Shown here: positions 1,637 through 37,580 of the stretch, piece after piece | Layout of the letters: each line of letters starts with the position of its first letter | Position numbering within the stretch: position 1 is the stretch's first letter | NCBI GenBank assembly: GCA_973895155.1 | Contig: OZ316897.1 | Location: 21,303,455 to 21,367,454 of the forward strand | Source: Marsupella aquatica | Lineage: Eukaryota > Plantae > Marchantiophyta | DNA: 64,000 nt | Reading direction: 5' to 3' | Program-made: the position numbers and the translations under genes | The notes under the pieces: generated by a model | What the model saw: only the letters and a program-made list of their open reading frames with translations | Database searches by the model: none | Told to the model about the DNA's origin: nothing

Positions 1637-1656
1637 TAGAGTCCCACCCTTGTTTT

Positions 1657-11992: not shown

Positions 11993-11994
11993 AG

Positions 11995-17900: not shown

Positions 17901-18926
17901 CGCGGCGAGGCGAGAGAACGAATCTCTGCTGGACCAGGTCCAGCTCCTCAAAGCGGACAATGACAGGCTTCGAAGACAGTGGGATGGTCGTTCCCATTCG
18001 GGCGGCTCTGGCAAGCGTGCCAGGCATTAGCGGCGGAGTAGGAATAGATTAGGATTAGGATTGGCTTAGTCAGGCTCTTGGGACAGGCACCTGCCTTAGG
18101 TATAGCAGCGCTGCCCTGCTGTCCAGCCTGCGTAGATTAGGATCTTCTAATAAGACACAGCCGTTTTCCGGTCTGACTGTCAGCTTAGTTAGGACCTTAG
18201 TCAGCGAATCTTCGGCGAGAGGACACCCCGTCCCTCGGCTCTTAGTATTTAGTGCACCCCTCGGTAGAGGCAGGGGGGGTTTTAGTTTCAGAGTCAGACA
18301 TCCGCGGGATATGCGGGGAGTCCCGACCTCTGGGAATGAAAGAGTACCAAGGGGAGGGGGTAGGACTAAGCTCGTCGGGCGAGTGCGGAGCCGGGCTCCG
18401 TTGTAGTGTGCACCCTCGGCCTTGAACCTGTTCATTCCAGGGCTGTCGGGTCAACTAAGTGTACGCATATGTTCCCTTTGTAGTAAAATCCTTTCCCATC
18501 ATTTTCCTTCGTGTAAATCGAGATTGTATGCATGTGTGCGCATATGTGTGTGGGTTTCTCGTATATGGGTGGCAGCACCAGGCCGAACGCACTACCCGAG
18601 ACGTGCACAGGGTGCAGCCTGCGGGTAAGTGGTTGCGAGCACGGGTTGAGGACCTGTATCATCGAATCCGGATCGAAGGTGGACAGCACGAAGGCTTAGA
18701 AGCCCTTAAGCTGGGGTCGATCCTGCTATCGACTAAGGTACGTTCCGGTGGCGGAACACAAACCATACCTAGGAGGTGTCCATATTTAGCAGTATGCGCA
18801 CTTAGCGCTAGTTTACGAGAATAAGGTGCATTACGTGCTTCCCTTCCTGCCCGAACCCTCAGATTTACGAGGGATGTGCCCATCTAAGCTGAAGTCTGAG
18901 TTAAGGCCGAAGCCTACGACGTGACA
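14909..18926 (+). mobile_element. Probable solo LTR (4018 bp) carrying a long ORF
   Basis: Termini TGTGACG...CGTGACA, flanks AACGG/AACGA (TSD with 1 mismatch). Removing it restores the copia reading frame (NAT-ATFAIES...LWHARLGH). No gag/pol inside. Confidence 0.8.
15376..18030 (+). pseudogene. LTR-encoded accessory protein (plant-transposon-type domain plus coiled coil)
   Basis: ORFs 15640-15975 and 15997-18030 share a frame that extends back to ATG 15376 through three stops (15415, 15577, 15973). TATAAAA lies at ~15268. Core LGFEHLTSLPW...EFVKNYD...LRGRNMSLT...IFGLP resembles the LTR ORF of gypsy-2. Confidence 0.7.
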
Positions 18927-18931
18927 AACGA

Positions 18932-20103
18932 CAACATTTGCTATAGAATCATCTACGGCTGCTTCAATTGAAGCACCCTCAACATCTGGTCGCACACAAG
19001 CCATAGATTTGTGGCATGCACGGTTGGGGCACTTGAGTGGTAAAGGATTGGCAGCCTTGGCAAACAGAGAATTGTTGCAAGGCGCTCAACCTGGTAAACT
19101 CTCTTTTTGTGAAGATTGCATCTTCGGCAAGCAGAGGAGAATGAGTTTCAGTTCTAGTTCATACCATTCTCATGAGATTCTTGAGTATGTACATTCGGAT
19201 GTTTGGGGTCCAGCGTCGGAGCCATCATTGGGTGGAGCCAGATATTTTGTGACGTTTGTAGATGATTACTCTCGAATGTGCTGGTTGTACTACATGAAGG
19301 AGAAGTCTCAAGTCTTTGAGATTTTCAAGGAGTGGAAAGCCATGGTAGAGCTACAAACTGGGAAGGAGTTGAAGTGTGTTTGGTCCGATAACGGTGGCGA
19401 GTATAAGTCCAATGAGTTTGATCAATTTGGTCGGGACCTTGGCCTCAAGCGTCATTACACTGTACCGGAGACCCCGCAGCAGAATGGAGTTGCAGAACGG
19501 TTGAATCGGACATTACTGGAGAAAGCACGCAGCATGCTATGTAAGTCCAAGTTGCCCAATAACTTTTGGGCTGAAGCTGTCAACCAAGCTGCATACGTCT
19601 ACAATTTGTCACCGCATAGTAGTAAGTTGATGCAGACTCCATTTGAGTTGTGGTATAAGAGACCTGCTAATTACTCTAGACTCCGAGTTTTTGGTTGTGC
19701 TGCCTATGTTCACATTGAGCAGACACACAGGTCTAAGTTGGATCCCAAGTCTAAGAAATGTATTTTTCTAGGCTTTAGTCCTGGGCAAAACGGCTATAAA
19801 TTGTGGGATCCTGTCGATTGCAAGGCAGTTGTGAGTAGAAATGTTGTTTTTGATGAAGAATGGTTGTCAAGACCCCAGGATATTCAGGAGGAACAGGTGG
19901 AGGAACCCACTACAGTGGAGCTTGGTGGTGATGAGGAAGCTGCTGGTCCCTCTGGTAGAGGAGCAATTCCTCAACCAAGGCGCTCCACCAGGGCCAATTT
20001 TGGCCAACCCCCTGATAGATTTGGTTTTGCAGATCCTCGTTTTCACGGTGTTAAACATGACGATGATCCCGGTGTTGTTTTGCTTACTGAAGATGGAGAT
20101 CCC
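18932..20103 (+). pseudogene. copia-B integrase segment
   Basis: LWHARLGH, CEDC, HSDVWGP, FVDDYSR, SDNGGEY, QQNGVAER, SKLDPKS. Confidence 0.93.
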
Positions 20104-23100
20104 TATGGTGCGTCCCATGGCTCCCTAAACCCAAGAAACCCCCCAGCTCAAGCCGATTCCCGCAGGTTTCGTGCTTGGCGAGGCCGTTTCCGCGGCTTAG
20201 CGGCATGGGACGCTGCTAACCTTCTACTACTACTATTAACATTTTACACACATATACTGGACAGATCCTTCATCGGGTCATGAGATACGTAGCCGGCCTA
20301 ATATAGGCCTTCCCTTGTCTTCCCCTGTCTTCCCCTCCGTCTTGTTAGGTATGTTTGGATTCCGCCGCCGGAATGATCCCCAATAGGCTTGGTTAAGCCG
20401 CTAAGACCTCTCTCAGCTCGACACATCCAACTATCACTCCCCTGCTTACTTTCCTTCCTTCTGTTGATGTGGGCACTCTTCACACAAATTAATGCGACAC
20501 ACAAATAGCAAAATGACTCATTCTGACTGAGTCATACCATGCACTTGCCATACAAACAGTACATCTCATACACAAGTTCTGCGAACTAAGCCGTGAGGCC
20601 AACTCTATTCAGCTCTTAGGCATGAGGAAACATGAATATACACAAGGGTCACTGTATGACTAACCGAGAGCTTCTCGTACTACTTGATCCCATCCCGGCT
20701 GGTGCAAACTAAAAACTTGCTAAAGAAGAGGCCCTGAGCTCCCCGCTGCCCAGGTACTTATCCTGGTAGTGGATCCGCCATTCTTTGCATCGTAAGCCTA
20801 ATCTACCTGACAGTAATCTACTTGCCCGAATCTACCTATGTACAGCAAGGCAGGAGCACAAGTGTTGCTCCTACCAGTGGGACCGCAATCCCACTAAGCT
20901 AAGTGTCAGGGCCGCTCCTGGTTCTGATCCTAATCCTAAACGTGGAGATCCGCGCCCGCCCTGCCCACTCACGCCTCCTCCCTCCACGTCCGCCCTCCCT
21001 AAAAGGAACGGCGCCCTTGCACCGTCACGACACCGGTGGTGGATCCTCAATGGACGCCCCCAACACTTCCTCCTCAGCCACTGTCGTTGGCCCGCCTACT
21101 GACAGATTACCTGCCCTTGACCGAGTCAACTTTCCATCGGCCTGACTGGGTCCACCTTCGGCTTCAGCCTCGACACCGGCCTCGGCAATACCCACGGCTT
21201 CGGCCTCAGCCACTCCCACGGCTTCGGCTTCAGCCACTCCCTCGGCTTCGGCCTCCCCTTCCCCTAGGGTAGTTGGATCCTTAGCCGTGACCCTGTCTGG
21301 GGTCGGTGCTGGGTCTACCTCCTTGATCACCATGGCCTGTGAAGTCGTATTACTCCTTGACCCTGGAGGTTTCCGCTTCTTCTTCGTTGGTGGCTCGGCA
21401 GCTGGTCCCTTCCCCTTCCCACTTATTTCCGGCACTGGTGCAGTTGACGCGGCTTGTCCTTCGGCAATTACCACCCCTGGTAACTGGTTTGTCCCAACGG
21501 GAGATGGACCTGCTGCAGCTAAGCATTTAAATACTGCGGCTTGTTTCTTCAGCCGCTCTGTTTGGTTGTCGGCCCGCCGCTGTAGGTTCTCCATCTTCCT
21601 TGTGATTTCCTCCAACTCCTCTTGGGTTTCATCCAGGTCCTTACGTGCCCCCTCCAACTCGTTTTTGGCCTCCTCCTGCTCCCTGTGGGCTTCCTCCAAT
21701 TCCTTCTTCAAGGTAGCCCTCTCCTCCTGGGTTGCTCTTAGCTCCTTGTCGAGCTCTTCAATGATGACAGACTCCATCTGGTTCATCTTGGCGTAAGTCT
21801 GTTCGAGCATCTCGTCCTTCTCCCTTAGGTCGGCCTTGAAGCTGGCCGTCAGGGACGCAAGCTCCTGCTGCAGCGCCATAATCCCTTGATAGGATTTCCC
21901 TAACTCGACCTCCTTCTGCTCAAGGGCTCCGCGGATTTTCTCGAGCTCCCCTTTCAACGCCCATTCTTTTCTTTGGGTCTCCGCCATGGCCCGGCTGTTG
22001 GCTGTTATGTGGGCCTCCTCTGTATTCTTCAGCTCTTGCTTCCACTTCTCCCTCTCTTTGATCGTGTCGGCCAACTCTTCCTGCGTCTGAGTCAGTTTAT
22101 CCTTGATATTCTGATTATCAGCCTGCGCGGCGTCCAACTGCCCCTGCATGATGTTCAGCTCATGTCGTTTAATCCGCAGTTCATCTTGGGCTCTCTTGGC
22201 CGCCCTTAGATCTTCAATCTCGGCTTCCATCCTCCTAAGCCGCCGAATGACCTCGTCCTTTTTGCTTCTCTCTAAAGCCACCGCTTCTTCTAATTGGTGC
22301 TTCTCCAACTGCTCCCTATGAAAAAAGGGTCCTACCTCCAACTCCTCTCCAAACATGCCGAGCGCAAGTTCCCCACACATCTCACCATACTCCATGGCTC
22401 TATTCTTAGCGTAGGTGGAGTAAGTAGAAGTGATCGGCATCGCCCATCGTGGCCTCTGCTCCCACGCCGTCCTGCGGATCTCTTCAATCGTGGCTAGAGG
22501 TTTGCTTCCTTTTTTGGCTAGCCGCCTGATGTCCTCCGGCCAATCTCCTCCTGGTAAATCCTTTTCCTTAGCCAGGGCGGCCTCTTCCTCCTGCTTGATT
22601 CGCTCCTGAAATTCCTGCACCGTCTGTTTTATGCCGTCGAAGCTCGGGGGAGCAACATCTGGTGGGGGAGACTCAGGGCTACTCTGCTGGTTGGGGTCCC
22701 CTCGCACTACCCTTGGAAGTGTGGGGACAAACCGGCCACAGGTCCTTACTCCTGGAACGTGATGGTCCGACCCATAGCCGGAATTATCATGGCTGCAGTC
22801 CTCCACTGCCTCCTCTACTTCTTGGACGTCCGGCTTCTCCCTCTCCTCTTCCTCGGTAGGAGCTTTAGGCAATTCTGCCTCAGATTCGGAGCTTGAGGTT
22901 CCCACGTACATTCGAACACCTGGCTTGGATTCCGGCCTGATTCTCTTCTTGTCTCCAGCAAAGGGGTTTTCTCTTGTGAGCCGGTGTAGGCCTACCTCTG
23001 TAGTAGTGTCCTGCATTGTTGCCGTTGCCGTTGTTGTTGCCGATGCCGATTTCTTTTCTTTCTCCAGTAGTTTCAGCAGACTCTGCATGCCTGGTTGCTG

Positions 23101-24763
23101 CATCGGCAAGTCTTCCTTCCTGGGCCTAAACACTTGCTCGATCGTAGGACTAACAGGTGGTTGAGGCTTCTCAGCCAACGGCCTCGGCGTTGGAGCTTCC
23201 TCGGGTGCCCTTACCTGCAGGGGAAGTACCGGGGCAAAAGTCTGACCTCTGGCATACCGGCACAACAGCGGCATGTGATAGCCAAGCCGCGACACGCTTC
23301 CCATGCCGATTACCTGCTGCTCCTCCTTTAAGATCTTCTTCAATTGGTTGAGGAGGTACCCGTTGTAGTCCCGGCTTGGGTCTGGCCTTTCTGCCAGATA
23401 GACCTGTGCTTTGCCGATCTCTGCCCTCGGCAAGTTACAATGCATGGTCACCCGCAAGAAGTCGATCATCTCTCCTATGTGCGGGTTGGTGCAGGTGTTC
23501 CGGAAGAAGCCATTCTTCGTTGATGGCCCGGGGAACGACCGGAACTCCTTGTCAGGCAAGGTCTTCCTGGTATCAACTTTGGTCTTATTGCCTATCGGCA
23601 AGCCAAACACTTCGGCAATTACCTTGGGAGTAAGATAGAAATCCTTCCCATATATCCTCGTGCAATTGGTCTCGGGTTCCCATGACCCCACGAATTCTAA
23701 TAGGTCTGACTCCTATACCTCCGGCTTCAGCCATGGTAATCTTACAAAGGCCTCCAAGCCGGATCCGGCCATGAAGCCTTGGTACTTCTTGGTCTGCATG
23801 GCCGTAAAGCATGCATCCTCCTCCCGTGCAAAATGTAGTTGCACCTCCACCGGTAGGGTTGCCGCCCAGCCCTTCCAGGTGTCATCCCTGGTTGGAATGG
23901 CCTTGATGGGATCGACCTCCTCCTCTTTGGCTTCTCCCTGCCCCTTGCTCTGCTGCTCGGCTGGCTTCTTTGGTGCCGCCGACCTCGTTCTTTTTGCCGG
24001 GGTGGCTTCATCGTTGACGGCCCCCTTCCTCTTCATCTCTGCTGCCGTGGAGGTTTCTCCTAGCACCGTTGCCTGGGTCCACCTTTCCATGCTACCCTTT
24101 AATTCCCAGTGTATGTCGTTGCAGTTCTTGATGGCCTCTCGGATGCCGACGACGCTGTCTTTGCAAAACAGAAGATCGTCGAGTTGATTGGAAGTAGGCG
24201 TCCACAGGAACTCGTCCTTGATGAGTTCGCCTCCTAAGAAAGCCGTCTTGTGCAGCTCCCACAATCGAGTGAGCTCCTGCCGTTCTCGAGCTGCCCTTTC
24301 TGACTCCTCGTCCTCGTAAGTCTTGATGTACTCAGTTGCCCGTTCGAACAGGCATCCCCAGAAATGTGCCGCTTGATTGACGTTGCTCATACCCTCCTTA
24401 GGTCGATCGTCGGTATCTACTCTCTCCCCGAGTGCTTGCCTAAGCAGCTGACAGTAGTTGGCCTCCCGTAGTCGTCTGCCTAGTTCGTGCTCGCAAATGA
24501 GCCACCATCTCCTGCAAGCGCTCCTTACCCCTCTCCTCTGCCGGTCCTTCTTCCCGTTGATCCTTCCTAGCCGCCGACGCTTAACGCGCCCTAACCCTAA
24601 TCGGGTTTTCACCCTCAGCCTTACCTCCGGCCTCTGCCCGGGTTCCATGGTTGCCCCTAATTGTTTATATTTTCCTTGTTTTGTCACTATACTAAGGTGT
24701 TCCTAGGGTGCCTTCCTGCTTTACCCACTTAACCGGCCGAGTGATTCCTGTCTAGGCATCACA
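20104..24763 (-). repeat. 3' LTR of gypsy-2
   Basis: Starts TGTGATGCC after PPT TTAAGTGGGGAGCTA (24764-24778, minus). The terminal CA is mutated to TA in this copy. Confidence 0.93.
21025..24687 (-). pseudogene. LTR-encoded ~1220-aa accessory protein, 3' LTR copy (one premature stop at 23713-23715)
   Basis: ORFs 23713-24687 and 21025-23691 are in frame; the stop reads CCG in the other two LTR copies. Core GLEAFVRLPW...EFVGSW...IYGKDFYLT...VFGLP, then a long coiled coil. True start uncertain. Confidence 0.85.
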
Positions 24764-27700
24764 TAGCTCCCCACTTAATTGTGAAGCGTCCTCGCGAACA
24801 ACTTCATCTTTGTCCATATAGTATTTCTTGAGGCGGTCATAATGGATGCGAACTGGATATACCTCTCCCGTAATGTTGGCCAATTGCACGGAGCCATTGG
24901 GGAACATCATGGTTACTCTAAAGGGTCCTAACCAGCGAGTGTAAAGCTTTCCTGGAAACCTATTATACCTACTGTCATAAAGTAGCACAAGATCACCGGT
25001 ATGAATACTAACTACTTTTAACCTTTTATCATACTGCTGCTTCATGATATTCTGTCTATATTCTACTCTCTCGGCTGAAATCATTCTCGCTTCCTCTAAA
25101 GCTTCTAACCTATATTCTCGCTCCTTTAGGCTCTCCTCCGCTGAGGCTCTTTCCTCAATTGTAACTTGAAATGTCGGTATCTCAAGTTGCATGGGTACCA
25201 GGGCTTCTTGTCCAAAGGTTAAGAAGAAGGGTGTATGACCGGTAGTGGATTTATAGGCAAGATTGTAAGCAAAAACAGCAGCAAACAATTTATCATCCCA
25301 ATCGAGTTTGTTCTGAGCTACTATCTTGTTCAATATCTTTCCTATGATCCCGTTTGCTCGTTCTGTCAACCCGTTTGCCTTTGGATGGTAGGGAGTAGTA
25401 GGCCTATGTTTAACTAAATACTGCTCATTTAAACGACTAATTATATCATTCAAAAAATGGGTTCCTCTATCACTAACTAATTCTAGGGGTGCTCCATACC
25501 TGGTGAAGATCTGCTCATACATGAATCTAGCCGTAGTAATTGCATCATCCTTCGTTGTTGGTCTGGCCTCTACCCATTTAGTTGCATAATCCGTAGCCAG
25601 GATTATGTACTTGTTCCGTCGAGGGTGGGTCAGTGGTTTCAGAGGTCCAATGTAATCAATACCCCACTTCTCGAATGGTGCCAGAGGTAGAATAGGGTGC
25701 AGTGGATGCCTGGTGGACGCCCTTGGTCCTCCCGCTCGTTGACAAGGATCGCATTGTTTGATAAACTGATAGACATCTTTGTGCAAGGTGGGCCACCAGT
25801 AACCGGCATTTAATATCTTCTTAGACGTGGTTACTGGGGCAAAATATCCTCCGGCCTCCTCTCCATGCATGGCCCGTAGGACTCGTTTTACCTCTCTCTT
25901 TTCCAAACACCTTTGAATCGTGCCGTTGATTCCATGCTTGTGCAGTATGCCTTTAATGCACTGATACTGTCTGACCTTCCGCACAAAGACTGCGGCTTGC
26001 TCTCGGCTTAATCCTGGCTGTAATCTGGAAGTGCTGAGAAATTGTAAAATCTCAGGGTACCATGTACCAGCTATCTCCACAACGAATAGCTCCTCGTCGG
26101 GGAATCGATCATCGATGCAATCCGTGGCAGGTTTACCTGTGATCCTTGAAAAGAAGTCGGCATTGGCATGTAACTTTCCCGGCTTGATCCTCAGCTCATA
26201 GTCAAACTCCTGTAATAGCAAAATCCATCTTGCTACTCTGCCTGTAAGGTCCGGCTTATTGACTAGGTACTTCAAACTTTCATGATCAGTATGAAAGATT
26301 ACCTTGTACCCTAGTAAATAATGCCTAAACTTTTTACAAGAATAAATGACTCCTAATGCTTCTCTTTCCGTGGTAGAGTAGTTCCGTTCGGCATCGGCAA
26401 GCTGACGGCTTGCGAAGTATATGGGATGGTCCCTTCCTTTCTCATCCAACTGACTTAGTACTGAGCCAATACAGAAGCCCGAGACATCTACAAAAACATG
26501 AAAATCTTTGTTCCAGTCCGGTGCTATCATGACTGGGGCCTCTACTAACATCTGCTTCAATTCTACCACCGCTGTGACTCGTTCGGGTGTGGGTTCGAAG
26601 TCTGCTCCTGCCTTGAGCATATTGGTTAATGGTAAAGCTAGCTTGGCAAAATCCTTGATGAACCGGCGATAGTAACCAATGCATCCCAAGAAGGATCTTA
26701 CATCCTTTATGTTCTTAGGTTGCATGATATCTAGCCATACTGCTAGCTTACCTTTGTCAATCTCAATGCCCTTCCTTGATACCTTGTGACCTAGTAGCAC
26801 CCCCTCGGTTACTGCAAAAAAACATTTATCTGGGTGTAACTTGAGACCCACCTCTCTACATCTCATGAAGGTTTTCCTGAGGTATTTAGCATGTTTCGAT
26901 GCCTTCCCGAATACTGCAAAGTCATCAATGAAGATTTCCATGAACTTTCTCAAGTAATCATGAAAAATGTTCACCATTAATCGTTGGAACATAGCTGGTG
27001 CGTTGCAGAGTCCAAACGGCATACGATTGAAGACATAGATCCCCCATTCCGTGATGAAGGCCGTCTTGATTTGGTCTTCCTGCCGAATCCTGATTTGGTT
27101 ATAACCAGAGTATCCATCCATGAATGAATATAGTTCATGACTGGCTACCATGTCTAGTACCATATCAGTAAACGGTAAAGGAAAATGGTCTTTTAATGTT
27201 GCTTCATTCAGCTTCCTGTAATCCTGACAAACCCGGATCTTGGGTTTACCATCGGGTCCAGCTTTCTTGGGAACTATCACAATTGGAGACACCCAGTCTG
27301 AATGCAGGACTGGAGTGATGAATCCAGCTTCCACTAGTTTGTCGATTTCTGTTTTGACCAGCAGGGAATACTTCGGGTTCATCCTTCGAATTGGTTGTCG
27401 AAATGATTTGGCTCCTAACATGAGATCAATTCGATGTTCCCCTAGTGTTGGATCTACTCCCTTCAGATCTTGGTGACTCCATGCAAACACATCCTGAAAT
27501 TCAATCAATAAGTCACTGATCTCTTTCTCGAGCTCCGGTGCTAGGTTTCTCCCTAAGTTCAGTTCTCTTCCCTCTCCTAAGTCGAGCTTCCGATATTGCC
27601 GTGCTTGGATCATATTAATCTGCTTCTTCAAATTCGGGTCCAGTTCGGCTTCCAGTCTCTCTAATCTCATACCTCCATAAACTGGGATCTCGGCTGGACT

Positions 27701-28018
27701 AGCCGAGTCGGTCCCTTCCTTGGTGTCCATAGATTGTCCCCTTACCGGTCTATTCGGTTTTGAATTAGTGGTCGGCTCCCCTTCCTGCCTTGGCTCTAGA
27801 TCGTGTCTGTCCATCTCATCCACCTCTTGCTCCTGAGAGTTAGGCCGCTGTGCTCTCTCGGCTTCTAATAGGGCCTCAATTTGTTCTGCCCTCGTAATCG
27901 GCTTGTATGCCGATCCCTTGGTATTTAATTCCTTGCCGATGATCGATGGCGTTGTGGACCCCGTCGGCTCTGCCACAACGCCTGCAGAAAATCCACTGTC
28001 CCTGCTACTGCTCCCCAC
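24752..28018 (-). CDS. Pol (RT, RNase H, integrase) of gypsy-2
   Basis: FMDGYSGYNQI, FIDDF, FVDVSG, GIDYIG, SDRG, TERANG. In the -1 frame relative to gag-PR. The second His of the IN zinc finger reads Tyr. Confidence 0.93.
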   Translation of the reverse strand: MGSSSRDSGFSAGVVAEPTGSTTPSIIGKELNTKGSAYKPITRAEQIEALLEAERAQRPNSQEQEVDEMDRHDLEPRQEGEPTTNSKPNRPVRGQSMDTKEGTDSASPAEIPVYGGMRLERLEAELDPNLKKQINMIQARQYRKLDLGEGRELNLGRNLAPELEKEISDLLIEFQDVFAWSHQDLKGVDPTLGEHRIDLMLGAKSFRQPIRRMNPKYSLLVKTEIDKLVEAGFITPVLHSDWVSPIVIVPKKAGPDGKPKIRVCQDYRKLNEATLKDHFPLPFTDMVLDMVASHELYSFMDGYSGYNQIRIRQEDQIKTAFITEWGIYVFNRMPFGLCNAPAMFQRLMVNIFHDYLRKFMEIFIDDFAVFGKASKHAKYLRKTFMRCREVGLKLHPDKCFFAVTEGVLLGHKVSRKGIEIDKGKLAVWLDIMQPKNIKDVRSFLGCIGYYRRFIKDFAKLALPLTNMLKAGADFEPTPERVTAVVELKQMLVEAPVMIAPDWNKDFHVFVDVSGFCIGSVLSQLDEKGRDHPIYFASRQLADAERNYSTTEREALGVIYSCKKFRHYLLGYKVIFHTDHESLKYLVNKPDLTGRVARWILLLQEFDYELRIKPGKLHANADFFSRITGKPATDCIDDRFPDEELFVVEIAGTWYPEILQFLSTSRLQPGLSREQAAVFVRKVRQYQCIKGILHKHGINGTIQRCLEKREVKRVLRAMHGEEAGGYFAPVTTSKKILNAGYWWPTLHKDVYQFIKQCDPCQRAGGPRASTRHPLHPILPLAPFEKWGIDYIGPLKPLTHPRRNKYIILATDYATKWVEARPTTKDDAITTARFMYEQIFTRYGAPLELVSDRGTHFLNDIISRLNEQYLVKHRPTTPYHPKANGLTERANGIIGKILNKIVAQNKLDWDDKLFAAVFAYNLAYKSTTGHTPFFLTFGQEALVPMQLEIPTFQVTIEERASAEESLKEREYRLEALEEARMISAERVEYRQNIMKQQYDKRLKVVSIHTGDLVLLYDSRYNRFPGKLYTRWLGPFRVTMMFPNGSVQLANITGEVYPVRIHYDRLKKYYMDKDEVVREDASQLSGELCDA

Positions 28019-30918
28019 TTAGCCGTTTCATCCAATTGGTCTACATCCTTTACTTCCTCCGGAATTGCAGCTAAAAAGGTGGATTCTATTGTAAAGCAGT
28101 CCTCGACCTCTTCGTCTTCTTCTTCCAAGTCACCTTCCATTGGTTCTTGCCATAATCCGCTGGGGGGTACCTCTGGTCCAAAGACACCTTCTTCGGTTAG
28201 GTTAGTGAGGCATTCTAACCAACGTACTTCATCGGCTGACTCCAGTCCACTATCGTACCCATCTACTTCCCTTATGCTTTTCCTACGGTCATCCTTAGTG
28301 TCCCAGGATACCGTGATAGAGGGGGTCCCGAAAGTGAACTGCTTTTTACCCCAATCTTCTATTACCTCGGCTAGGTACAGCCATGGCCTACCAATCAATA
28401 GCCAGAAGGACGTAGGATTTACCGGCTTCATTACTACATAGTTAATGCTAAAGAAGATACCTCCTATCTCTGTCTTGATGCCGGTTAACACTCCCGTCGG
28501 AATGACCTGATATCCATTGGCCATGTTCAACACTCTTCCAGTCATCTCCGGTGTTAGACCCCACCCTTTTGCTGTTGAATCAATCATAATACATACCCCT
28601 GATCCTCCATCGATGGGTACCCGTAGTAATAATTCTCCTTGAATCATTAATGGTAATGCTGGGGCTCCTTGATCTTCTTCTATCATTAGTACGTCGGATC
28701 TGGTTGCTACCTTGGGTAATCTCGGCTTGCCGAGAATAGCCTTCCTTAATTGCTTCCGGAAGTACGGGCTATTTTTCAATAGTTGACCTACTGTTGCCGA
28801 GACTCTAGATTCTAGTACATCTTTAGCCAGGTCATAGGGAACAATCGGCTTCTCTTCTGGTGGTGTTTCCGTCTTGGATTCGGCCAGTTTTGCCACGCTA
28901 GTCTCCACAGCTGTTGGGTCTTCCGAAGCAAACAATGCTTTTGCTCGTTTTACATCCTTGGCAATGGCTTCGGTATTCTCCAGGGTTTCTAATTCTCTTA
29001 GTTGTTCCTTAACACTAGCCGTAACAGAGGGGTAGAACAACTTAGGATGATCTCGATTGAAGTCGCTATCTTGTGAAGGATTGGTTTCACTGGTGGGCTC
29101 ATGGCTTACCTGTATTGCCGGAGCCCTCCCTTCTCCTTCTGTTGATGTTGACGAAGAGTCGATCCTTTCCTCCGTAACCTTCCCTTTATTTTTGGCCAGC
29201 CCATCCCACCTTTCCTTCCTTCTGGTAGATCGAGTAGAGACCCGGTAGCAATCATGATCTAAATCCTCCTCTGAGAAGGTTGATAGGGCTTCGGCCTCAT
29301 CATCAGATGGTACGAACTCTGCCTCGGCATCCTCTTGCCATCCTAGTTCGATGTGGTTGATTTGAACTCCTCCGGGGGTAGTACCTGGCGGTAAGATCTT
29401 GATCGGCAAAAGCTTATGATTTGCGGCCAGGCCTGCCAACCAAGTAGGACATTGCCCTAGCATATGACCTTCCTGTCGGCATCCCATACATAGCTGAGCT
29501 GGTTGTCCATCACCCTGTTTGCGTGCATTCGGGCATTCTCTAGCAAAATGGCCAGGTTGACCACAATTATAGCACGCCGCAAATCTTTGCACATTCGGCC
29601 TAGGAGGTACTGACGGGTTCTGAATAATCCGAGGATACATCTCTCCTGGATTGTTCCTTAACCCTGACCACAGAGATGCAGGTCTGTTGGATAGGTCTCG
29701 TGCTCCAGTCTCACTGATGCCGAAAACACTATCAGCGGCATCTCCCAAAAAGTACTCTACTTCTCCCTGACATGGTCTGATCTCGGCCACATGCCGAACA
29801 TGATTAGTATTAAGCTTAGGACACGCATCTTTATGGTGTCCGGTTTTATAACATAAGGCACACCATACAGAGCTATCCTCCTGTACTACCTTCTTCTTTG
29901 GTTTTACCTCTGCAATGATAGCCTTAAGTTGCTCGGTAAGGGCTACGATGTTATCTGGTGGCTTAGCCTCCATCTTGACTTTCGTCTTCCCTCTCCTTCT
30001 GCCCTTCCTTTTCCTAGTTTTTTCTTCTTCAGAACTAGAAGATGACTCACTCTTGCTACTCCCACTATCCGAGCTTGACTTATCACTTCTAGACTTCTTG
30101 GAATGTTTCTTCTTCTTATCTTTTTTCTTATGGGGTGATCCCTCCTCTGATGAGGAACTCTCAGACTTAAGCTGTTTCTTCCGGCTTGTGATATCTGCAT
30201 TAATGTATAATTGAATATCCTTAATTGCTTCGGCTAAAGTCTCCGGGTTCTCCTTCCTAATTGCAAAACTCATCTTCTGTGGCAAGGCATTCACTAACCA
30301 TTGAAGTTGCATACCTTCAGATGCATTGGTCTTTGTACGTCTTACCAGTTTCTGAAAGCGTTGCAAGAACTTCCTGAAGGATTTGTTCTCCTTGAACCGA
30401 AGTTGTCCCAACTTCAGCACTGCTAGTTCTGAAGTTCCAATGGGTCGAAACTCCTTAACAAAGAGTGTTTTGAAGATATCCCAGATGGCTTGATCTTCCA
30501 CATCTAATGCTCTGTACCAAGGCCTAGCCTCACCCTTGAACAGGCCGGGAAGAATCTGCATCTTGATGGCCGATTCTCCATTTGCTGCAGCGGTTCCCTT
30601 GAAATCATCCAACCATTCGTCCGGATCCTCATCTCCTCTCCCATGAAATGCTTTGTAATGTATGCGTGACCGCTGGCTCAATCTGGTCCCTGGCCTCTCG
30701 TCTGGCCGTGCCTCTGGTTCCCCCATGTCGGTTGGAGACTCACTTCTCCTTACCGACTCTTCTTCTGGTATGTCTTCTTCGACGCCACTTCCAGTTTCGG
30801 AGCTACCAGCTCTTTCTGCCCCTCTCAGTCGCTGTGTATCATGCCACCCGGCGAGCTGCTGCAGTCGAGCTCTCTCCCGTTGAATCACTCTTTCTTCCCT
30901 CGGCGTAAGGTCAGTCAT
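27925..30918 (-). CDS. Gag-protease of gypsy-2
   Basis: 997-aa ORF with gag core, three CCHC knuckles and PR VPIDGGSG...LLIGRPW; colinear with gypsy-1. Confidence 0.93.
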   Translation of the reverse strand: MTDLTPREERVIQRERARLQQLAGWHDTQRLRGAERAGSSETGSGVEEDIPEEESVRRSESPTDMGEPEARPDERPGTRLSQRSRIHYKAFHGRGDEDPDEWLDDFKGTAAANGESAIKMQILPGLFKGEARPWYRALDVEDQAIWDIFKTLFVKEFRPIGTSELAVLKLGQLRFKENKSFRKFLQRFQKLVRRTKTNASEGMQLQWLVNALPQKMSFAIRKENPETLAEAIKDIQLYINADITSRKKQLKSESSSSEEGSPHKKKDKKKKHSKKSRSDKSSSDSGSSKSESSSSSEEEKTRKRKGRRRGKTKVKMEAKPPDNIVALTEQLKAIIAEVKPKKKVVQEDSSVWCALCYKTGHHKDACPKLNTNHVRHVAEIRPCQGEVEYFLGDAADSVFGISETGARDLSNRPASLWSGLRNNPGEMYPRIIQNPSVPPRPNVQRFAACYNCGQPGHFARECPNARKQGDGQPAQLCMGCRQEGHMLGQCPTWLAGLAANHKLLPIKILPPGTTPGGVQINHIELGWQEDAEAEFVPSDDEAEALSTFSEEDLDHDCYRVSTRSTRRKERWDGLAKNKGKVTEERIDSSSTSTEGEGRAPAIQVSHEPTSETNPSQDSDFNRDHPKLFYPSVTASVKEQLRELETLENTEAIAKDVKRAKALFASEDPTAVETSVAKLAESKTETPPEEKPIVPYDLAKDVLESRVSATVGQLLKNSPYFRKQLRKAILGKPRLPKVATRSDVLMIEEDQGAPALPLMIQGELLLRVPIDGGSGVCIMIDSTAKGWGLTPEMTGRVLNMANGYQVIPTGVLTGIKTEIGGIFFSINYVVMKPVNPTSFWLLIGRPWLYLAEVIEDWGKKQFTFGTPSITVSWDTKDDRRKSIREVDGYDSGLESADEVRWLECLTNLTEEGVFGPEVPPSGLWQEPMEGDLEEEDEEVEDCFTIESTFLAAIPEEVKDVDQLDETAKWGAVAGTVDFLQALWQSRRGPQRHRSSARN
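27935..27994 (-). promoter_or_regulatory. Putative -1 programmed ribosomal frameshift signal
   Basis: G_GAT_TTT in the gag frame, 5-nt spacer, perfect 10-bp stem GGCGTTGTGG/CCACAACGCC, and loop GCCGA complementary to downstream TCGGC. Confidence 0.75.
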
Positions 30919-30965
30919 TACCTACGCTTCCGTTCTAACTTCATATCTCACGGCTTAAGAAATGC

Positions 30966-30983
30966 CCCCTCCATCTAGCGCCA
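30966..30983 (-). promoter_or_regulatory. Primer binding site, tRNA-Asn type
   Basis: TGGCGCTAGATGGAGGGG, 4 nt after the 5' LTR; close to the complement of the plant tRNA-Asn 3' end (..CCCTCCTTCTAGCGCCA). Confidence 0.75.
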
Positions 30984-30987
30984 AAAA

Positions 30988-33900
30988 TGTGGTGCGTCCC
31001 ATGGCTCCCTAAACCCAAGAAACCCCCCAGCTCAAGCCGATTCCCGCAGGTTTCGTGCTTGGCGAGGCCGTTTCCGCGGCTTAGCGGCATGGGACGCTGC
31101 TAACCTTCTACTACTACTATTAACATTTTACACACATATACTGGACAGATCCTTCATCGGGTCATGAGATACGTAGCCGGCCTAATATAGGCCTTCCCTT
31201 GTCTTCCCCTGTCTTCCCCTCCGTCTTGTTAGGTATGTTTGGATTCCGCCGCCGGAATGATCCCCAATAGGCTTGGTTAAGCCGCTAAGACCTCTCTCAG
31301 CTCGACACATCCAACTATCACTCCCCTGCTTACTTTCCTTCCTTCTGTTGATGTGGGCACTCTTCACACAAGTTAATGCGACACACAAATAGCAAAATGA
31401 CTCATTCTGACTGAGTCATACCATGCACTTGCCATACAAACAGTACATCTCATACACAAGTTCTGCGAACTAAGCCGTGAGGCCAACTCTATTCAGCTCT
31501 TAGGCATGAGGAAACATGAATATACACAAGGGTCACTGTATGACTAACCGAGAGCTTCTCGTACTACTTGATCCCAGCCCGGCTGGTGCAAACTAAAAAC
31601 TTGCTAAAGAAGAGGCCCTGAGCTCCCCGCTGCCCAGGTACTTATCCTGGTAGTGGATCCGCCATTCTTTGCATCGTAAGCCTAATCTACCTGACAGTAA
31701 TCTACTTGCCCGAATCTACCTATGTACAGCAAGGCAGGAGCACAAGTGTTGCTCCTACCACTGGAACCGCAATCCCACTAAGCTAAGTGTCAGGGCCGCT
31801 CCTGGTTCTGATCCTAATCCTAAACGTGGAGATCCGCGCCCGCCCTGCCCACTCACGCCTCCTCCCTCCACGTCCGCCCTCCCTAAAAGGAACGGCGCCC
31901 TTGCACCATCACGACACCGGTGGTGGATCCTCAATGGACGCCCCCAACACTTCCTCCTCAGCCACTGCCGTTGGCCCGCCTACTGACAGATTACCTGCCC
32001 TTGACCGAGTCAACTTTCCATCGGCCTGACTGGGTCCACCTTCGGCTTCAGCCTCGACACCGGCCTCGGCAATACCCACGGCTTCGGCCTCAGCCACTCC
32101 CACGGCTTCGGCTTCAGCCACTCCCTCGGCTTCGGCCTCCCCTTCCCCTAGGGTAGTTGGATCCTTAGCCGTGACCCTGTCTGGGGTCGGTGCTGGGTCT
32201 ACCTCCTTGATCACCATGGCCTGTGAAGTCGTATTACTCCTTGACCCTGGAGGTTTCCGCTTCTTCTTCGTTGGTGGCTCGGCAGCTGGTCCCTTCCCCT
32301 TCCCACTTATTTCCGGCACTGGTGCATTTGACGCGGCTTGTCCTTCGGCAATTACCACCCCTGGTAACTGGTTTGTCCCAACGGGAGATGGACCTGCTGC
32401 AGCTAAGCATTTAAATACTGCGGCTTGTTTCTTCAGCCGCTCTGTTTGGTTGTCGGCCCGCCGCTGTAGGTTCTCCATCTTCCTCGTGATTTCCTCCAAC
32501 TCCTCTTGGGTTTCATCCAGGTCCTTACGTGCCCCCTCCAGCTCGTTTTTGGCCTCCTCCTGCTCCCTGTGGGCTTCCTCCAATTCCTTCTTCAAGGTAG
32601 CCCTCTCCTCCTGGGTTGCTCTTAGCTCCTTGTCGAGCTCTGCAATGATGACAGACTCCATCTGGTTCATCTTGGCGTAAGTCTGTTCGAGCATCTCGTC
32701 CTTCTCCCTTAGGTCGGCCTTGAAGCTGGCCGTCAGGGACGCAAGCTCCTGCTGCAGCGCCATAATCCCTTGATAGGATTTCCCTAACTCGACCTCCTTC
32801 TGCTCAAGGGCTCCGCGGATTTTCTCGAGCTCCCCTTTCAACGCCCATTCCTTTCTTTGGGTCTCCGCCATGGCCCGGCTGTTGGCTGTTATGTGGGCCT
32901 CCTCTGTATTCTTCAGCTCTTGCTTCCACTTCTCCCTCTCTTTGATCGTGTCGGCCAACTCTTCCTGCGTCTGAGTCAGTTTATCCTTGATATTCTGATT
33001 ATCAGCCTGCGCGGCGTCCAACTGCCCCTGCATGATGTTCAGCTCATGTCGTTTAATCCGCAGTTCATCTTGGGCTCTCTTGGCCGCCCTTAGATCTTCA
33101 ATCTCGGCTTCCATCCTCCTAAGCCGCCGAATGACCTCGTCCTTCTTGCTTCTCTCTAAAGCCACCGCTTCTTCTAATTGGTGCTTCTCCAACTGCTCCC
33201 TATGAAAAAAGGGTCCTACCTCCAACTCCTCTCCAAAGATGCCGAGCGCAAGTTCCCCACACATCTCACCATACTCCATGGCTCTATTCTTAGTGTAGGT
33301 GGAGTAAGTAGAAGTGATCGGCATCGCCCATCGTGGCCTCTGCTCCCATGCCGTCCTGCGGATCTCTTCAATCGTGGCTAGAGGTTTGCTTCCTTTTTCG
33401 GCTAGCCGCCTGATGTCCTCCGGCCAATCTCCTCCTGGTAAATCCTTTTCCTTAGCCAGGGCGGCCTCTTCCTCCTGCTTGATTCGCTCCTGAAATTCCT
33501 GCACCGTCTGTTTTATGCCGTCGAAGCTCGGGGGAGCAACATCTGGTGGGGGAGACTCAGGGCTACTCTGCTGGTTGGGGTCCCCTCGCACTACCCTTGG
33601 AAGTGTGGGGACAAACCGGCCACAGGTCCTTACTCCTGGAACGTGATGGTCCGACCCATAGCCGGAATTATCATGGCTGCAGTCCTCCACTGCCTCCTCT
33701 ACTTCTTGGACGTCCGGCTTCTCCCTCTCCTCTTCCTCGGTAGGAGCTTTAGGCAATTCTGCCTCAGATTTGGAGCTTGAGGTTCCCACGTACATTCGAA
33801 CACCTGGCTTGGATTCCGGCCTGATTCTCTTCTTGTCTCCAGCAAAGGGGTTTTCTCTTGTGAGCCGGTGTAGGCCTACCTCTGTAGTAGTGTCCTGCAT

Positions 33901-35647
33901 TGTTGCCGTTGCCGTTGTTGTTGCCGATGCCGATTTCTTTTCTTTCTCCAGTAGTTTCAGCAGACTCTGCATGCCTGGTTGCTGCATCGGCAAGTCTTCC
34001 TTCCTGGGCCTAAACACCTGCTCGATCGTAGGACTAACAGGTGGTTGAGGCTTCTCAGCCAACGGCCTCGGCGTTGGAGCTTCCTCGGGTGCCCTTACCT
34101 GCAGGGGAAGTACCGGGGCAAAAGTCTGACCTCTGGCATACCGGCACAACAGCGGCATGTGATAGCCAAGCCGCGACACGCTTCCCATGCCGATTACCTG
34201 CTGCTCCTCCTTTAAGATCTTCTTCAATTGGTTGAGGAGGTACCCGTTGTAGTCCCGGCTTGGGTCTGGCCTTTCTGCCAGATAGACCTATGCTTTGCCG
34301 ATCTCTGCCCTCGGCAAGTTACAATGCATGGTCACCCGCAAGAAGTCGATCATCTCTCCTATGTGCGGGTTGGTGCAGGTGTTCCGGAAGAAGCCATTCT
34401 TCGTTGATGGCCCGGGGAACGACCGGAACTCCTTGTCAGGCAAGGTCTTCCTGGTATCAACTTTGGTCTTATTGCCTATCGGCAAGCCAAACACTTCGGC
34501 AATTACCTTGGGAGTAAGATAGAAATCCTTCCCATATATCCTCGTGCAATTGGTCTCGGGTTCCCATGACCCCACGAATTCTAATAGGTCTGACTCCGGT
34601 ACCTCCGGCTTCAGCCATGGTAATCTTACAAAGGCCTCCAAGCCGGATCCGGCCATGAAGCCTTGGTACTTCTTGGTCTGCATGGCCGTAAAGCATGCAT
34701 CCTCCTCCCGTGCAAAATGTAGTTGCACCTCCACCGGTAGGGTTGCCGCCCAGCCCTTCCAGGTGTCATCCCTGGTTGGAATGGCCTTGATGGGATCGAC
34801 CTCCTCCTCTTCGGCTTCTCCCTGCCCCTTGCTCTGCTACTCGGCTGGCTTCTTTGGTGCCGCCGACCTCGTTCTTTTTGCCGGGGTGGCTTCATCGTTG
34901 ACGGCCCCCTTCCTCTTCATCTCTGCTGCCGTGGAGGTTTCTCCTAGCACCGTTGCCTGGGTCCACCTTTCCGTGCTACCCTTTAATTCCCAGTGTATGT
35001 CATTGCAGTTCTTGATGGCCTCTCGGATGCCGACGACGCTGTCTTTGCAAAACAGAAGATCGTCGAGTTGATTGGAAGTAGGCGTCCACAGGAACTCGTC
35101 CTTGATGAGTTCGCCTCCTAAGAAAGCCGTCTTGTGCAGCTCCCACAATCGAGCGAGCTCCTGCCGTTCTCGAGCTGCCCTTTCTGACTCCTCGTCCTCG
35201 TAAGTCTTGATGTACTCAGTTGCCCGTTCGAACAGGCATCCCCAGAAATGTGCCGCTTGATTGACGTTGCTCATACCCTCCTTAGGTCGATCGTCGGTAT
35301 CTACTCTCTCCCCGAGTGCTTGCCTAAGCAGCTGACAGTAGTTGGCCTCCCGTAGTCGTCTGCCTAGTTTGTGCTCGCAAATGAGCCACCATCTCCTGCA
35401 AGCGCTCCTTACCCCTCTCCTCTGCCGGTCCTTCTTCCCGTTGATCCTTCCTAGCCGCCGACGCTTAACGCGCCCTAACCCTAATCGGGTTTTCACCCTC
35501 AGCCTTACCTCCGGCCTCTGCCCGGGTTCCATGGTTGCCCCTAATTGTTTATATTTTCCTTGTTTTGTCACTATACTAAGGTGTTCCTAGGGTGCCTTCC
35601 TGCTTTACCCACTTAACCGGCCGAGTGATTCCTGTCTAGGCATCACA
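30988..35647 (-). repeat. 5' LTR of gypsy-2
   Basis: TGTGATG...CACCACA on the minus strand; near-identical to 20104-24763. Confidence 0.95.
31909..35571 (-). pseudogene. LTR-encoded accessory protein, 5' LTR copy (two CAG>TAG stops at 34837-34839 and 34288-34290)
   Basis: Three in-frame ORF pieces matching 21025-24687. Confidence 0.85.
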
Positions 35648-35652
35648 ATCCC

Positions 35653-37287: not shown

Positions 37288-37580
37288 TGTTAGGAATTGA
37301 CTCGAGTTCCCGACTTAGTTTATTTGGCCTTACTAGGGTTAGTTAACCCTAGATTACATTAGGATAAGATTCGCTTTGTTTAGGCCCACTCATCTTGGCC
37401 CCCTTGGGGGGTATAGGCTGGAGGGAGACCACTCTCTCCCTCATTCTTCACATGTACTCTCATTTGCTATGGAGCCTTCAGGAGTTTCTCCACTCGGGGT
37501 GTCTCGTCGGTGTAGCGTCTGATTGAGTGTCTCTCATGTTTCCGCATTGCTGTCTAGTCCGGAGCTGACGGTTTCTTACA
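37288..37580 (+). repeat. 3' LTR of copia-B
   Basis: Preceded by PPT AAGGTGGAGAT and followed by TSD AAATC. Confidence 0.95.

Follow-up and report, generated by a model that had tools for sequence, protein, structure and literature searches.

The long terminal repeats (LTRs) of gypsy-2, a Ty3/gypsy retrotransposon of the liverwort Marsupella aquatica, each enclose a gene of about 1,200 codons. This gene is a retrotransposon accessory gene of a known sort that has been shifted into the LTR. We think it rather probable that it encodes a VANC21-like domain followed by a coiled coil, that it likely belongs to U3, and that its product acts in trans on the LTRs of its own family. The element was studied in a window, the whole stretch of DNA analysed, of 64,000 nucleotides (assembly GCA_973895155.1, contig OZ316897.1, positions 21,303,455 to 21,367,454), in which the following parts were located:

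20104..35647, minus strand: gypsy-2, a complete Ty3/gypsy element of 15,544 bp, nested in a Ty1/copia element.
20099-20103 and 35648-35652: perfect 5-bp target duplication GGGAT, on both sides of gypsy-2.
30988..35647, minus strand: 5' LTR, 4,660 bp, starting TGTGATGCC and ending ..CACCACA.
20104..24763, minus strand: 3' LTR, 4,660 bp, with 28 differences from the 5' LTR.
24764..24776, minus strand: polypurine tract (PPT) AAGTGGGGAGCTA, abutting the 3' LTR on its upstream side.
30971..30983, minus strand: TGGCGCTAGATGG, 5 nt past the 5' LTR and beginning TGGCGC..., primer-binding-site (PBS)-like by sequence.
27925..30921, minus strand: gag-protease frame (Retrotrans_gag, zf-CCHC).
24752..28018, minus strand: pol frame (RVT_1, RNase H, integrase), in another frame than gag, with a 94-nt overlap.
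62030..64000, plus strand: third copy of the gypsy-2 LTR, an independent insertion cut by the window end, with a 233-bp deletion at 63175/63176.

When the window was compared with itself by BLAST, 20106-24763 matched 30990-35647 over 4,658 bp at 99.42% identity, and the termini of the repeats were of the TG..CA type (TGTG...CACA/CATA). With these ends, the target duplication, the PPT and the PBS-like site, the terminal repeats of gypsy-2 are true LTRs. Pfam matches in the internal part were to Retrotrans_gag, zf-CCHC, RVT_1, RT_RNaseH, Integrase_H2C2 and rve, the protease being recognised by its DGGSG motif with no Pfam match of its own, and the order gag-PR-RT-RH-INT between the PBS-like site and the PPT is that of Ty3/gypsy elements. 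No chromodomain match was obtained for pol with Pfam, and its stop codon (24752-24754) falls within the 3' LTR. Besides its deletion, the third LTR copy carries a 6-bp in-frame insertion.

The gene was found in both LTRs of the element:

21025..24702, minus strand: LTR gene, 3' LTR copy, 1,225 codons plus stop, with an in-frame stop at 23713-23715.
31909..35586, minus strand: LTR gene, 5' LTR copy, same frame, with in-frame stops at 34837-34839 and 34288-34290.

These frames correspond to the sense-strand frame that a sequence-only reading of this DNA had described as filling about 3.66 kb of each 4.66-kb LTR. The gene lies wholly within the LTR, beginning 61-116 nt past its start and ending 920 nt before its end; in the 3' LTR copy, the first ATG is at 24646-24648 and the next in-frame one (M105) at 24388-24390. 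The same reading had claimed that the LTR copies are broken at different sites and that their consensus is open. The breaks (stops at 23713, 34288 and 34837, deletion near 63175) were all located, and at each of the three gypsy-2 stops a sense codon was present in whichever other LTR copy or copies cover the site, so that each stop is private to one copy. The longest open stretch comprised 895 codons; in 200 dinucleotide-preserving shuffles it averaged 176 and never exceeded 357. The 1,226-codon span contained two stops, compared to a minimum of 16 in the shuffled sequences.

The sense strand is purine-rich (A+G 0.60, T 0.17), which lowers the frequency of stops and could favour a chance frame; the repeats might also be something other than LTRs, namely two copies of another element around a gypsy core. 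Both ideas are extremely improbable and are refuted by the shuffles, by homologues with E-values down to 5e-49, by the PPT and PBS adjoining the repeats, by the perfect 5-bp duplication around the whole element and by a sister family whose solo LTR has a proven empty site (below). Judged by sequence, the LTR frame is a genuine protein gene with relatives elsewhere. As it lies wholly in a true LTR, each new insertion receives it at both ends through reverse transcription, and one copy stays behind in a solo LTR.

A homologous gene was detected in a second LTR family of the window:

14909..18926, plus strand: solo LTR of a diverged sister family, 4,018 bp, TGTGACGCC...GTGACA, target duplication AACGG/AACGA, inside the protease-integrase region of the copia element.
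15421..18030, plus strand: homologous LTR gene, 869 codons, with private stops at 15577-15579 and 15973-15975, the domain at 16258-17010 and a C-terminal coiled coil.

The solo LTR is a discrete TG..CA insertion, and other copies of the copia element show the empty site, in which the joint 14903>18927 skips 4,023 nt (4,018 + 5). Its gene, with a longest open stretch of 684 codons, was 26% identical to the gypsy-2 gene (E 1e-18) and alike in orientation and position, which agrees with the earlier proposal that the gene persists in solo LTRs. No match at E<=0.01 was obtained by blastn between the DNA of the gypsy-2 LTR and that of the solo LTR; the same gene layout is present in a very diverged sister family. 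At both stops of the solo-LTR gene, at least 99% of the contig depth in X1, X2 and X4 had a different letter. By contrast, in the LTR (3.17 kb) of gypsy-1, the nearest sister in the window by pol (67% identity), neither a frame of at least 130 aa nor a profile match was found, and one related family or more can therefore do without the gene.

The gene could be a passenger, that is, a host or foreign gene of the VANC/PMD fold captured in the U3 of an ancestral LTR, bringing no benefit and decaying freely in each copy. GC3 was 0.62 and 0.64 in the LTR genes vs 0.45 and 0.47 in gag and pol, a gap that fits capture from elsewhere and leaves room for such a role; in addition, all four gene copies within the window are broken by stops or deletion, and gypsy-1 manages without the gene. 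Codon-position tallies between the family majority and the window copy were also flat among the places listed, with 12/7/13 of 32 places for gypsy-2 (from 40 rows of a table with 530 further rows) and 8/6/13 of 27 places for the solo-LTR family (from 40 rows, with 302 further rows). Nevertheless, two LTR families sharing no detectable DNA similarity retain the gene, its orientation and its position, the open stretches being as long as 895 and 684 codons, each stop is confined to one copy, and both families were very abundant in the sequencing runs searched. Moreover, gypsy-2 and the independent third copy differed by seven non-synonymous and six synonymous changes, with a pN/pS of 0.34 (one-sided p 0.053) that may be read as a weak sign of constraint on the gene. 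Between the 5' and 3' LTR genes of gypsy-2 there were 14 non-synonymous or stop changes and eight synonymous ones, and such neutral-looking differences are expected after insertion. We infer that the gene is under selection inside the family and regard a mere passenger as unlikely.

The following regions were distinguished in the encoded protein (coordinates of the 3' LTR copy):

23128..23910, minus strand: conserved globular domain, about aa 265-525, common to liverwort and other proteins, with a predicted VANC21-like fold.
21544..22326, minus strand: predicted coiled coil, about aa 793-1053, from weak Pfam coiled-coil matches and a heptad count (802-880, 978-1064).
21367..21387, minus strand: basic motif TKKKRKP, aa 1106-1112, which we take to be NLS-like.

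An exhaustive HMMER search with aa 1-800 as the query returned 22 proteins at E<=1e-3, the best at 5e-49 with 41% identity. The conserved domain extends over about 230 aa, with relatives at 25-41% identity whose matches span the domain (aa 265-525) and the N-terminal part (aa 109-264). An organism name was present for four of the ten relatives looked up, and in all four it was a liverwort. Some relatives sit in multi-copy clusters, and several have the identical order of domain, linker and coiled coil. The variable regions of the LTR-gene protein contain tandem peptide repeats.

In Pfam, no family matched the domain protein at E<=0.01 or at E<=10, and none of 20 aligned family members had a match at E<=5; profile searches of the PDB with the protein gave nothing at E<=10. 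The HMMs of DUF1985 (PF09331), DUF287 and PF10536 matched neither the protein nor the 20 aligned members. The likeness to Transposase_32 or PMD profiles raised in the sequence-only reading was thus not borne out, there being no Pfam match whatever in the LTR-gene protein. Its language-model neighbours included one cluster of DUF1985 (0.88) and one of PMD (0.87, with PMD in 18% of the members), DUF1985 being a VANC domain according to the available text of PMC5735166.

The domain of the solo-LTR protein was modelled with a pLDDT of 83.9 and a pTM of 0.79. When this model was compared with 48,161 chains by VIA-align, VANC21 (9lnk_A) was found at Z 8.8 (rmsd 4.2, 215 residues), only four chains reached Z>=2 and the runner-up scored 2.5. 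With Foldseek, VANC21 (9lnj_A) was again the top match (E 0.052, prob 0.96, TM 0.50), the runner-up having an E of 1.7 and a TM of 0.13. The model of the gypsy-2 domain was weaker (pLDDT 68.5), and VANC21 also came first with it, at Z 4.1 vs 3.0. This likeness, at 8% sequence identity, rests on predicted models, from which a fold like that of the DNA-binding region of VANC21 is predicted for the conserved domain. A role in silencing suppression gains support at the level of the fold, since the domain model matches VANC21; a common fold does not establish a common function.

Promoter-like sequences were present near both ends of the LTRs:

24665..24673 (also 35549-35557), minus strand: TATA-like AAATATAAA, 91-99 nt inside the LTR, a candidate promoter of a separate LTR transcript.
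31181..31257, minus strand: conserved block TTCCGGCGGCGGAATCCAAAC (31237-31257), a 10-nt repeat of 2.8 units and TATA-like TATATTAGG (31181-31189), 193-270 nt before the LTR end.
20297-20373, minus strand: conserved promoter-like block of the 3' LTR, matching 31181..31257.
18743..18789, plus strand: conserved block (18743-18763) and TATA-like CCATATTTAG (18780-18789) of the solo LTR, 137-183 nt before the LTR end.

A 21-nt block, TTCCGGYGGCGGAAYMCAAAC, occurred four times in the window vs none in 100 shuffles, always near the 3' end of an LTR-like unit, and a TATA-like box came next in the three LTRs (3/3) read. The block and box at 31181..31257 are likely the canonical LTR promoter, and their position near the 3' end of the LTR suggests that the gene lies within U3. 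Given such a promoter at 140-270 nt from the LTR end, transcription would include the gene in the 3' portion of the genomic RNA, after pol and the PPT, or would run from the TATA-like box at the LTR start, with translation then beginning at M105.

The TATA-like sequence that had been noted about 100 nt inside the LTR was recovered as AAATATAAA, and allows for a different arrangement. Transcription from this box would place the frame in a giant R-U5 as the first cistron of the genomic RNA, like ORF1 of Ogre but within the LTR. The box is present in both LTRs, an AT-rich TATTATTAG lies at a similar distance from the start of the solo LTR, and the first conserved residues are found near aa 109, just past M105. 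The box starts only 21 nt upstream of the first ATG, and a start driven by it would therefore fall at or past that ATG. This arrangement is, however, improbable, as three LTR families have, 140-270 nt from the end of the LTR and thus at the usual site of an LTR promoter, a second TATA-like box preceded by the only conserved non-coding block, and AATAA-like sequences, possibly poly(A) signals, follow within about 70 nt. In addition, an R-U5 of 4.5 kb would need the poly(A) site of the 5' LTR to be ignored and a strong-stop DNA of 4.5 kb.

In the favoured reading of a trans-acting protein from U3, the product would form oligomers by its coiled coil, be taken into the nucleus by its NLS-like motif and attach to short sequence motifs within the non-coding tail of the LTR, which might counter silencing or otherwise mark the copies of the family. 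Small motif arrays were seen in the LTR tails; the motif TAGATTAGG was not enriched over the window (17 observed vs 13 expected). It is doubtful that early land-plant Ty3/gypsy elements carry in U3 an anti-silencing factor of the VANC type, sequence-specific and targeted at motif arrays of its own LTR, so that each LTR, solo LTRs included, would form a complete counter-defence gene equipped with promoter and poly(A) site.

The globular domain and coiled coil could also serve as a structural or targeting factor instead of in anti-silencing, for instance as a chromatin tether for integration or, in the manner of the coiled-coil 'Athila domain', as a scaffold for particle or RNA. Both homologues (gypsy-2 and solo LTR) have a predicted coiled coil, and both VANC and the Athila domain have been modelled as coiled-coil oligomers with many host contacts, according to the accessible sections of PMC13547354. 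Furthermore, MAIN, a related cellular protein of the PMD type, works in silencing and not against it (available text of PMC5418596), so that the direction of the effect does not follow from the fold. On the other hand, the only relative with this fold whose structure has been solved binds DNA sequence-specifically and lifts silencing (available text of PMC5735166), and we consider this other function possible, if rather unlikely.

LTRs are treated as non-coding control regions, and a gene inside them is systematically missed because annotation pipelines and surveys of extra ORFs search between the LTRs. Such a gene is present in two copies per insertion, and when recombination reduces an element to a solo LTR, which is normally its end, the gene survives intact, so that a trans-acting protein could be supplied from thousands of scattered copies. 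VANC21, the only structural relative of the LTR-gene protein, is the one well-studied transposon factor that reverses host silencing sequence-specifically, and has been considered dicot-specific. Were the likeness to extend to function, a version of the VANC counter-defence, either independent or ancestral, would exist in bryophyte retrotransposons, and the origin of the plant mobile domain (PMD; MAIN/MAIL1) would become testable. If the gene is indeed a VANC-type factor in U3, the association of transposons with PMD/VANC would move from angiosperms back to bryophytes, and retrotransposon LTR genes would be indicated as the source of the PMD/MAIN/VANC fold.

Among retroelements, the sag gene of mouse mammary tumour virus (MMTV) is a superantigen ORF in U3 of the LTR, whereas HIV nef and the bel genes of foamy viruses overlap U3 only partially. 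Like sag, the gene described here is a sense-strand gene wholly in the LTR, hence doubled at the ends of the provirus and kept with the LTR, and, if it lies in U3, present in the genomic RNA within the 3' part. Its protein, about four times as long as that of sag, is unrelated to it, with no Pfam match at either E<=0.01 or E<=10, and gypsy-2 is a plant retrotransposon without env for which the U3 placement is suggested by promoter-like sequence.

Accessory genes borne by gypsy elements also include the PMD (PF10536) extra ORFs: as far as the available texts state, PMD-A clades are exclusively Gypsy-encoded in angiosperms (PMC5418596), and PMD is present in 57% of Ogre elements (PMC6317226). 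The available text of PMC13547354 names MAIN, a PMD protein, as a structural homologue of VANC. The LTR gene would belong to the same broad fold class if VANC is PMD-like, and the PMD cluster was among its language-model neighbours; it differs in the lack of a PF10536 match and in lying inside the LTR, outside the PBS..PPT interval. The extra ORFs of such elements are placed in the internal region (PMC7264820 and PMC11963269, in their accessible parts), and those surveyed are sorted as 5' or 3' of the element (PMC6317226, same limitation). By the description of the Phygy and Selgy clades in the available text of PMC6317226, gypsy-2 resembles them in having no chromodomain match and in a polyprotein that fills the internal part.

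VANC proteins of the VANDAL (Mutator-like) DNA transposons of Arabidopsis are sequence-specific anti-silencing factors, according to the available texts of PMC5735166 and PMC13547354. The LTR gene differs from VANC21 in the lack of a DUF1985 or DUF287 HMM match, in the low identity (8%) and in being carried by an LTR retrotransposon and not by a MULE/VANDAL; VANC is called dicot-specific (PMC13547354, in its accessible part), whereas the named relatives of the LTR gene are from liverwort. DNA binding and anti-silencing, known for VANC, are putative activities in the LTR-gene protein. Both are transposon-encoded accessory proteins with a globular domain followed by a coiled coil, with tandem peptide repeats in variable regions and short motif arrays in the non-coding DNA of the element, and the predicted fold of the LTR-gene domain matches, alone in the PDB, the crystal structure of VANC21 (9LNK/9LNJ; Z 8.8, TM 0.50).

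Each of the two LTRs of gypsy-2, a Ty3/gypsy element, was found to carry one sense-strand reading frame of 1,225 codons (referred to here as the LTR gene), as the sequence-only reading had described. A homologous frame was present in a solo LTR of a diverged sister family. The positions of these features in the window are listed below.

Features of the two LTR families
20104-35647, minus strand: whole gypsy-2 unit, with a perfect 5-bp duplication (GGGAT) on both sides
21025-24702 and 31909-35586, minus strand: LTR gene, one sense frame of 1,225 codons in each gypsy-2 LTR
14909-18926, plus strand: GC-rich solo-LTR insertion of 4,018 bp, interrupting an older Ty1/copia element in its protease-integrase region
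15421-18030, plus strand: solo-LTR gene frame of 869 codons, interrupted by two stops; its longest open stretch is 684 codons

When the LTR gene was compared with 200 dinucleotide-preserving shuffles, its longest open stretch was 895 codons versus at most 357 in the shuffles, and its 1,226-codon span contained two stops versus at least 16. The frame is far beyond chance, and a chance open frame was ruled out by the difference in open length. The in-frame stops previously read at 23713 in one LTR and at 34288 and 34837 in the other were placed exactly right, and every one of them was missing from the other copy or copies covering the site.

The repeats of gypsy-2 were defined by self-comparison of the window as a direct repeat of 4,658 bp (20106-24763 and 30990-35647) with 99.42% identity, starting with TGTGATGCC and ending with CACCACA or CACCATA. 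A purine tract, AAGTGGGGAGCTA, directly adjoins the 3' repeat, and TGGCGCTAGATGG lies 5 nt beyond the 5' repeat. The interior contains a gag-protease frame (Retrotrans_gag, zf-CCHC) and a pol frame (RVT_1, RNase H, integrase), the latter with no match to a chromodomain. As the repeats, the GGGAT duplication, the purine tract, TGGCGCTAGATGG and gag/pol are all present, gypsy-2 is a complete Ty3/gypsy element with LTRs of 4.66 kb. The gag-protease and pol frames overlap by 94 nt in different frames (27925-28018, minus strand), in a stretch that could not be aligned to the sister element gypsy-1; this overlap is either a programmed frameshift or a mutation. The summed contig depth, which is no copy number, was greater over the gypsy-2 LTR than over pol.

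An independent third copy of the gypsy-2 LTR (62030-64000) lies in the opposite orientation to gypsy-2 and is truncated by the window end. The 233-bp deletion that had been noted in it near 63175 was located as a gap at 63175/63176. Adjoining this copy, frames with matches to DUF4216 (weak) and DUF4218 were detected at 59966-62038 (minus strand); both are transposase-associated domains of plant DNA transposons.

The homologue in the second LTR family was detected at about 16100-17200 (plus strand) by tblastn of the relatives of the protein against the window. The 4,018-bp insertion that contains it starts with TGTGACGCC, compared to TGTGATGCC in the gypsy-2 LTR, ends with GTGACA and is flanked by AACGG and AACGA. 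In public-run contigs an empty site was found in which 14903 is joined to 18927, so that 4,023 bases (4,018 + 5) are skipped, with four letters common to both sides. From its termini, its flanks and this joint, 14909-18926 looks like a solo LTR. The proposal that the gene persists in solo LTRs was thereby borne out, in a sister family. Among the contig loose ends tabulated at the termini of the solo-LTR family, neither a PBS nor a pol consensus was seen. The older Ty1/copia element that received this insertion is the host of gypsy-2 too; it spans 11700-37581 (plus strand), with LTR parts at 11700-11993 and 37288-37581 (97.6% identity). Its gag and protease occupy 13476-14913, its integrase 18925-20103 and its RT 35815-36531.

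The protein of the solo-LTR gene showed 26% identity to that of gypsy-2 over a conserved globular region (about residues 265-525, referred to here as the domain; E 1e-18), with a weak match at the start of the coiled coil. Contigs of X1, X2 and X4 have a different letter at both stops of the solo-LTR gene in at least 99% of their depth; therefore, these stops are private to the window copy. No DNA similarity between the gypsy-2 LTR and the solo LTR was detected by blastn, and global alignment of the tails of the two LTR families gave no meaningful result. Therefore, the same gene has been kept in the same orientation and LTR position beyond the point at which the DNA can be recognised. Both families are very abundant in the public-run contigs.

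A six-frame search of the window with domain HMM profiles gave matches in the solo LTR and in the three copies of the gypsy-2 LTR, and nowhere else. The family closest to gypsy-2 by pol is gypsy-1 (67% identity), whose 3' LTR (3,165 bp) contains no frame of at least 130 aa and no match to the LTR-gene profile. This second gypsy element (window 1-10964, plus strand) is apparently intact, with a single gag-pol frame of 2,039 aa at 1640-7756, LTRs 100% identical over the visible 1,636 bp and the 3' LTR at about 7800-10964, after the PPT AAGTAGGGGGCTA. Elsewhere in the window, three consecutive frames of 323, 303 and 464 aa (51755-55337, plus strand) neither matched Pfam nor resembled the LTR gene, and 42587-42921 consists of tandem units of about 60 nt, roughly 80% identical to one another.

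An exhaustive HMMER search with residues 1-800 of the LTR-gene protein revealed 22 related proteins at E<=1e-3. The best of them matched residues 265-489 with 41% identity (E 5e-49), and the N-terminal residues 109-264 were covered by separate matches. Of the ten relatives looked up, four have an organism name, in each case as 'unnamed protein product' of a liverwort; some of the ten belong to multi-copy clusters. In several relatives the parts follow the same order: an N-terminal region precedes the domain (about 230 aa), after which come a linker rich in proline and, at the C-terminus, a coiled coil. In Pfam, no family was found for the LTR-gene protein or its three pieces apart from weak coiled-coil families, none in any of the 22 relatives and none at E<=5 in 20 aligned family members. 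Word-index searches gave no match for the protein among proteins of 673-2,144 aa, and none for the domain profile among proteins of 1,303-3,720 aa; on this last, weak evidence, no fusion of the domain to a polyprotein was seen. The 'near' search with the domain profile gave two matches. The LTR-gene frame is a real gene, common to two LTR families.

The third-position GC content of the LTR genes was 0.62 (21025-24702) and 0.64 (15421-18030), compared to 0.45-0.49 in gag/pol of the same or the sister element, which hints at a different origin of these genes or at a different mutational pressure in the LTRs.

Selection was assessed at two time scales. Between the two LTRs of gypsy-2, the LTR gene has accumulated 14 non-synonymous or stop changes and 8 synonymous ones, and these differences look neutral, as expected. 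Comparison of gypsy-2 with the independent third copy gave 7 non-synonymous and 6 synonymous changes (pN/pS 0.34, one-sided p 0.053), and codon-position tallies against the contigs were flat (12/7/13 and 8/6/13 among the places listed). For constraint over the short term, the evidence is no more than suggestive. That two diverged families have retained the gene in the same place argues strongly for long-term constraint.

A single non-coding block, TTCCGGYGGCGGAAYMCAAAC, was conserved; it has four occurrences in the window versus none in 100 shuffles, and all four lie towards the 3' end of LTR-like units. Each of the three LTRs read has a TATA-like box 17-47 nt beyond this block, followed by AATAA-like signals within about 70 nt. 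Should the block and the TATA-like box form the LTR promoter, the LTR gene would belong to U3, and only its copy in the 3' LTR would be transcribed. There it would form the last part of the genomic RNA, following pol and the PPT, which would in effect make it a 3' accessory ORF downstream of the PPT. The TATA-like box previously noted near the LTR start is indeed present, 91-99 nt inside the LTR, although it leaves too little distance to the first ATG. It could instead serve M105, the second in-frame ATG, which is located just ahead of the first conserved residues; in that case the LTR, solo LTRs included, would be a self-contained gene. We infer the U3 position and the expression of the LTR gene from these sequence signals.

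The non-coding LTR tails also contain tandem arrays of 15 nt x2.7 (20799-20837), 10 nt x2.8 (20309-20336) and GGATTA x4.8 (18035-18062). All four exact window copies of TAGATTAGG, which is not enriched window-wide, lie in LTR tails within about 230 nt downstream of LTR-gene stops. Both the arrays and these copies are possible binding sites. A GC-rich block of about 2.1 kb (~44600-46700, plus strand) carries the 21-nt block TTCCGGYGGCGGAAYMCAAAC with two mismatches near its 3' end (46425-46445); it probably represents another LTR of this lineage, the fourth, which is shorter and lacks the LTR gene.

The first model of the gypsy-2 domain, for which the stop was read as X, was of mediocre quality (pLDDT 68.5). 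Foldseek gave nothing below E 2 with this model, and an all-against-all structural search placed VANC21 at the top (Z 4.1 versus 3.0 for the next). The unbroken solo-LTR domain was modelled with confidence (pLDDT 83.9, pTM 0.79), and its sole notable Foldseek match was VANC21 bound to DNA (E 0.052, prob 0.96, TM 0.50; runner-up E 1.7, TM 0.13). In an exhaustive comparison of this model with 48,161 chains, VANC21 scored Z 8.8 (rmsd 4.2, 215 of 251 residues aligned); four chains reached Z>=2, the second-best with 2.5. On these predicted structures, we claim that the LTR-gene domain shares the VANC21 fold.

Among the language-model neighbours were a DUF1985 cluster (0.88) and another cluster (0.87) with PMD in 18% of its members; the first Atlas search had given leads of at most 0.80, including a Transposase_32 cluster at 0.75 (family in 13% of members). 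Sequence-profile searches of the PDB gave no match. As the sequence-level link is absent from the Pfam and PDB profile searches, membership of DUF1985 or PMD is not claimed. Residues ~793-1053 are rich in heptads, contain few P or G and gave the weak Pfam coiled-coil matches, and TKKKRKP (residues 1106-1112) resembles a classical nuclear localisation signal.

VANC is described as having two domains, one being DUF1985, and VANC21 as lifting silencing at the non-coding DNA of the VANDAL transposon that encodes it, where it binds arrays of a 9-nt motif (PMC5735166). VANC is also reported to be structurally homologous to MAIN, a PMD protein, and to be a coiled-coil oligomer (PMC13547354). By analogy with the modelled fold, we infer that the LTR gene may have an anti-silencing or DNA-binding role.

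According to reviews and a survey of 13,863 elements, plant LTR retrotransposons carry their extra ORFs in the internal region (PMC7264820, PMC11963269, PMC6317226), and PMD-type extra ORFs are reported from Ogre and from the PMD-A clades of angiosperm gypsy elements (PMC6317226, PMC5418596). In a limited phrase search of the literature, no plant LTR retrotransposon was reported to have a gene inside its LTR; the matches concerned retroviruses (MMTV and similar) or used 'LTR-encoded' in a generic sense. The nearest layout to that of the gypsy-2 LTR gene is MMTV sag.
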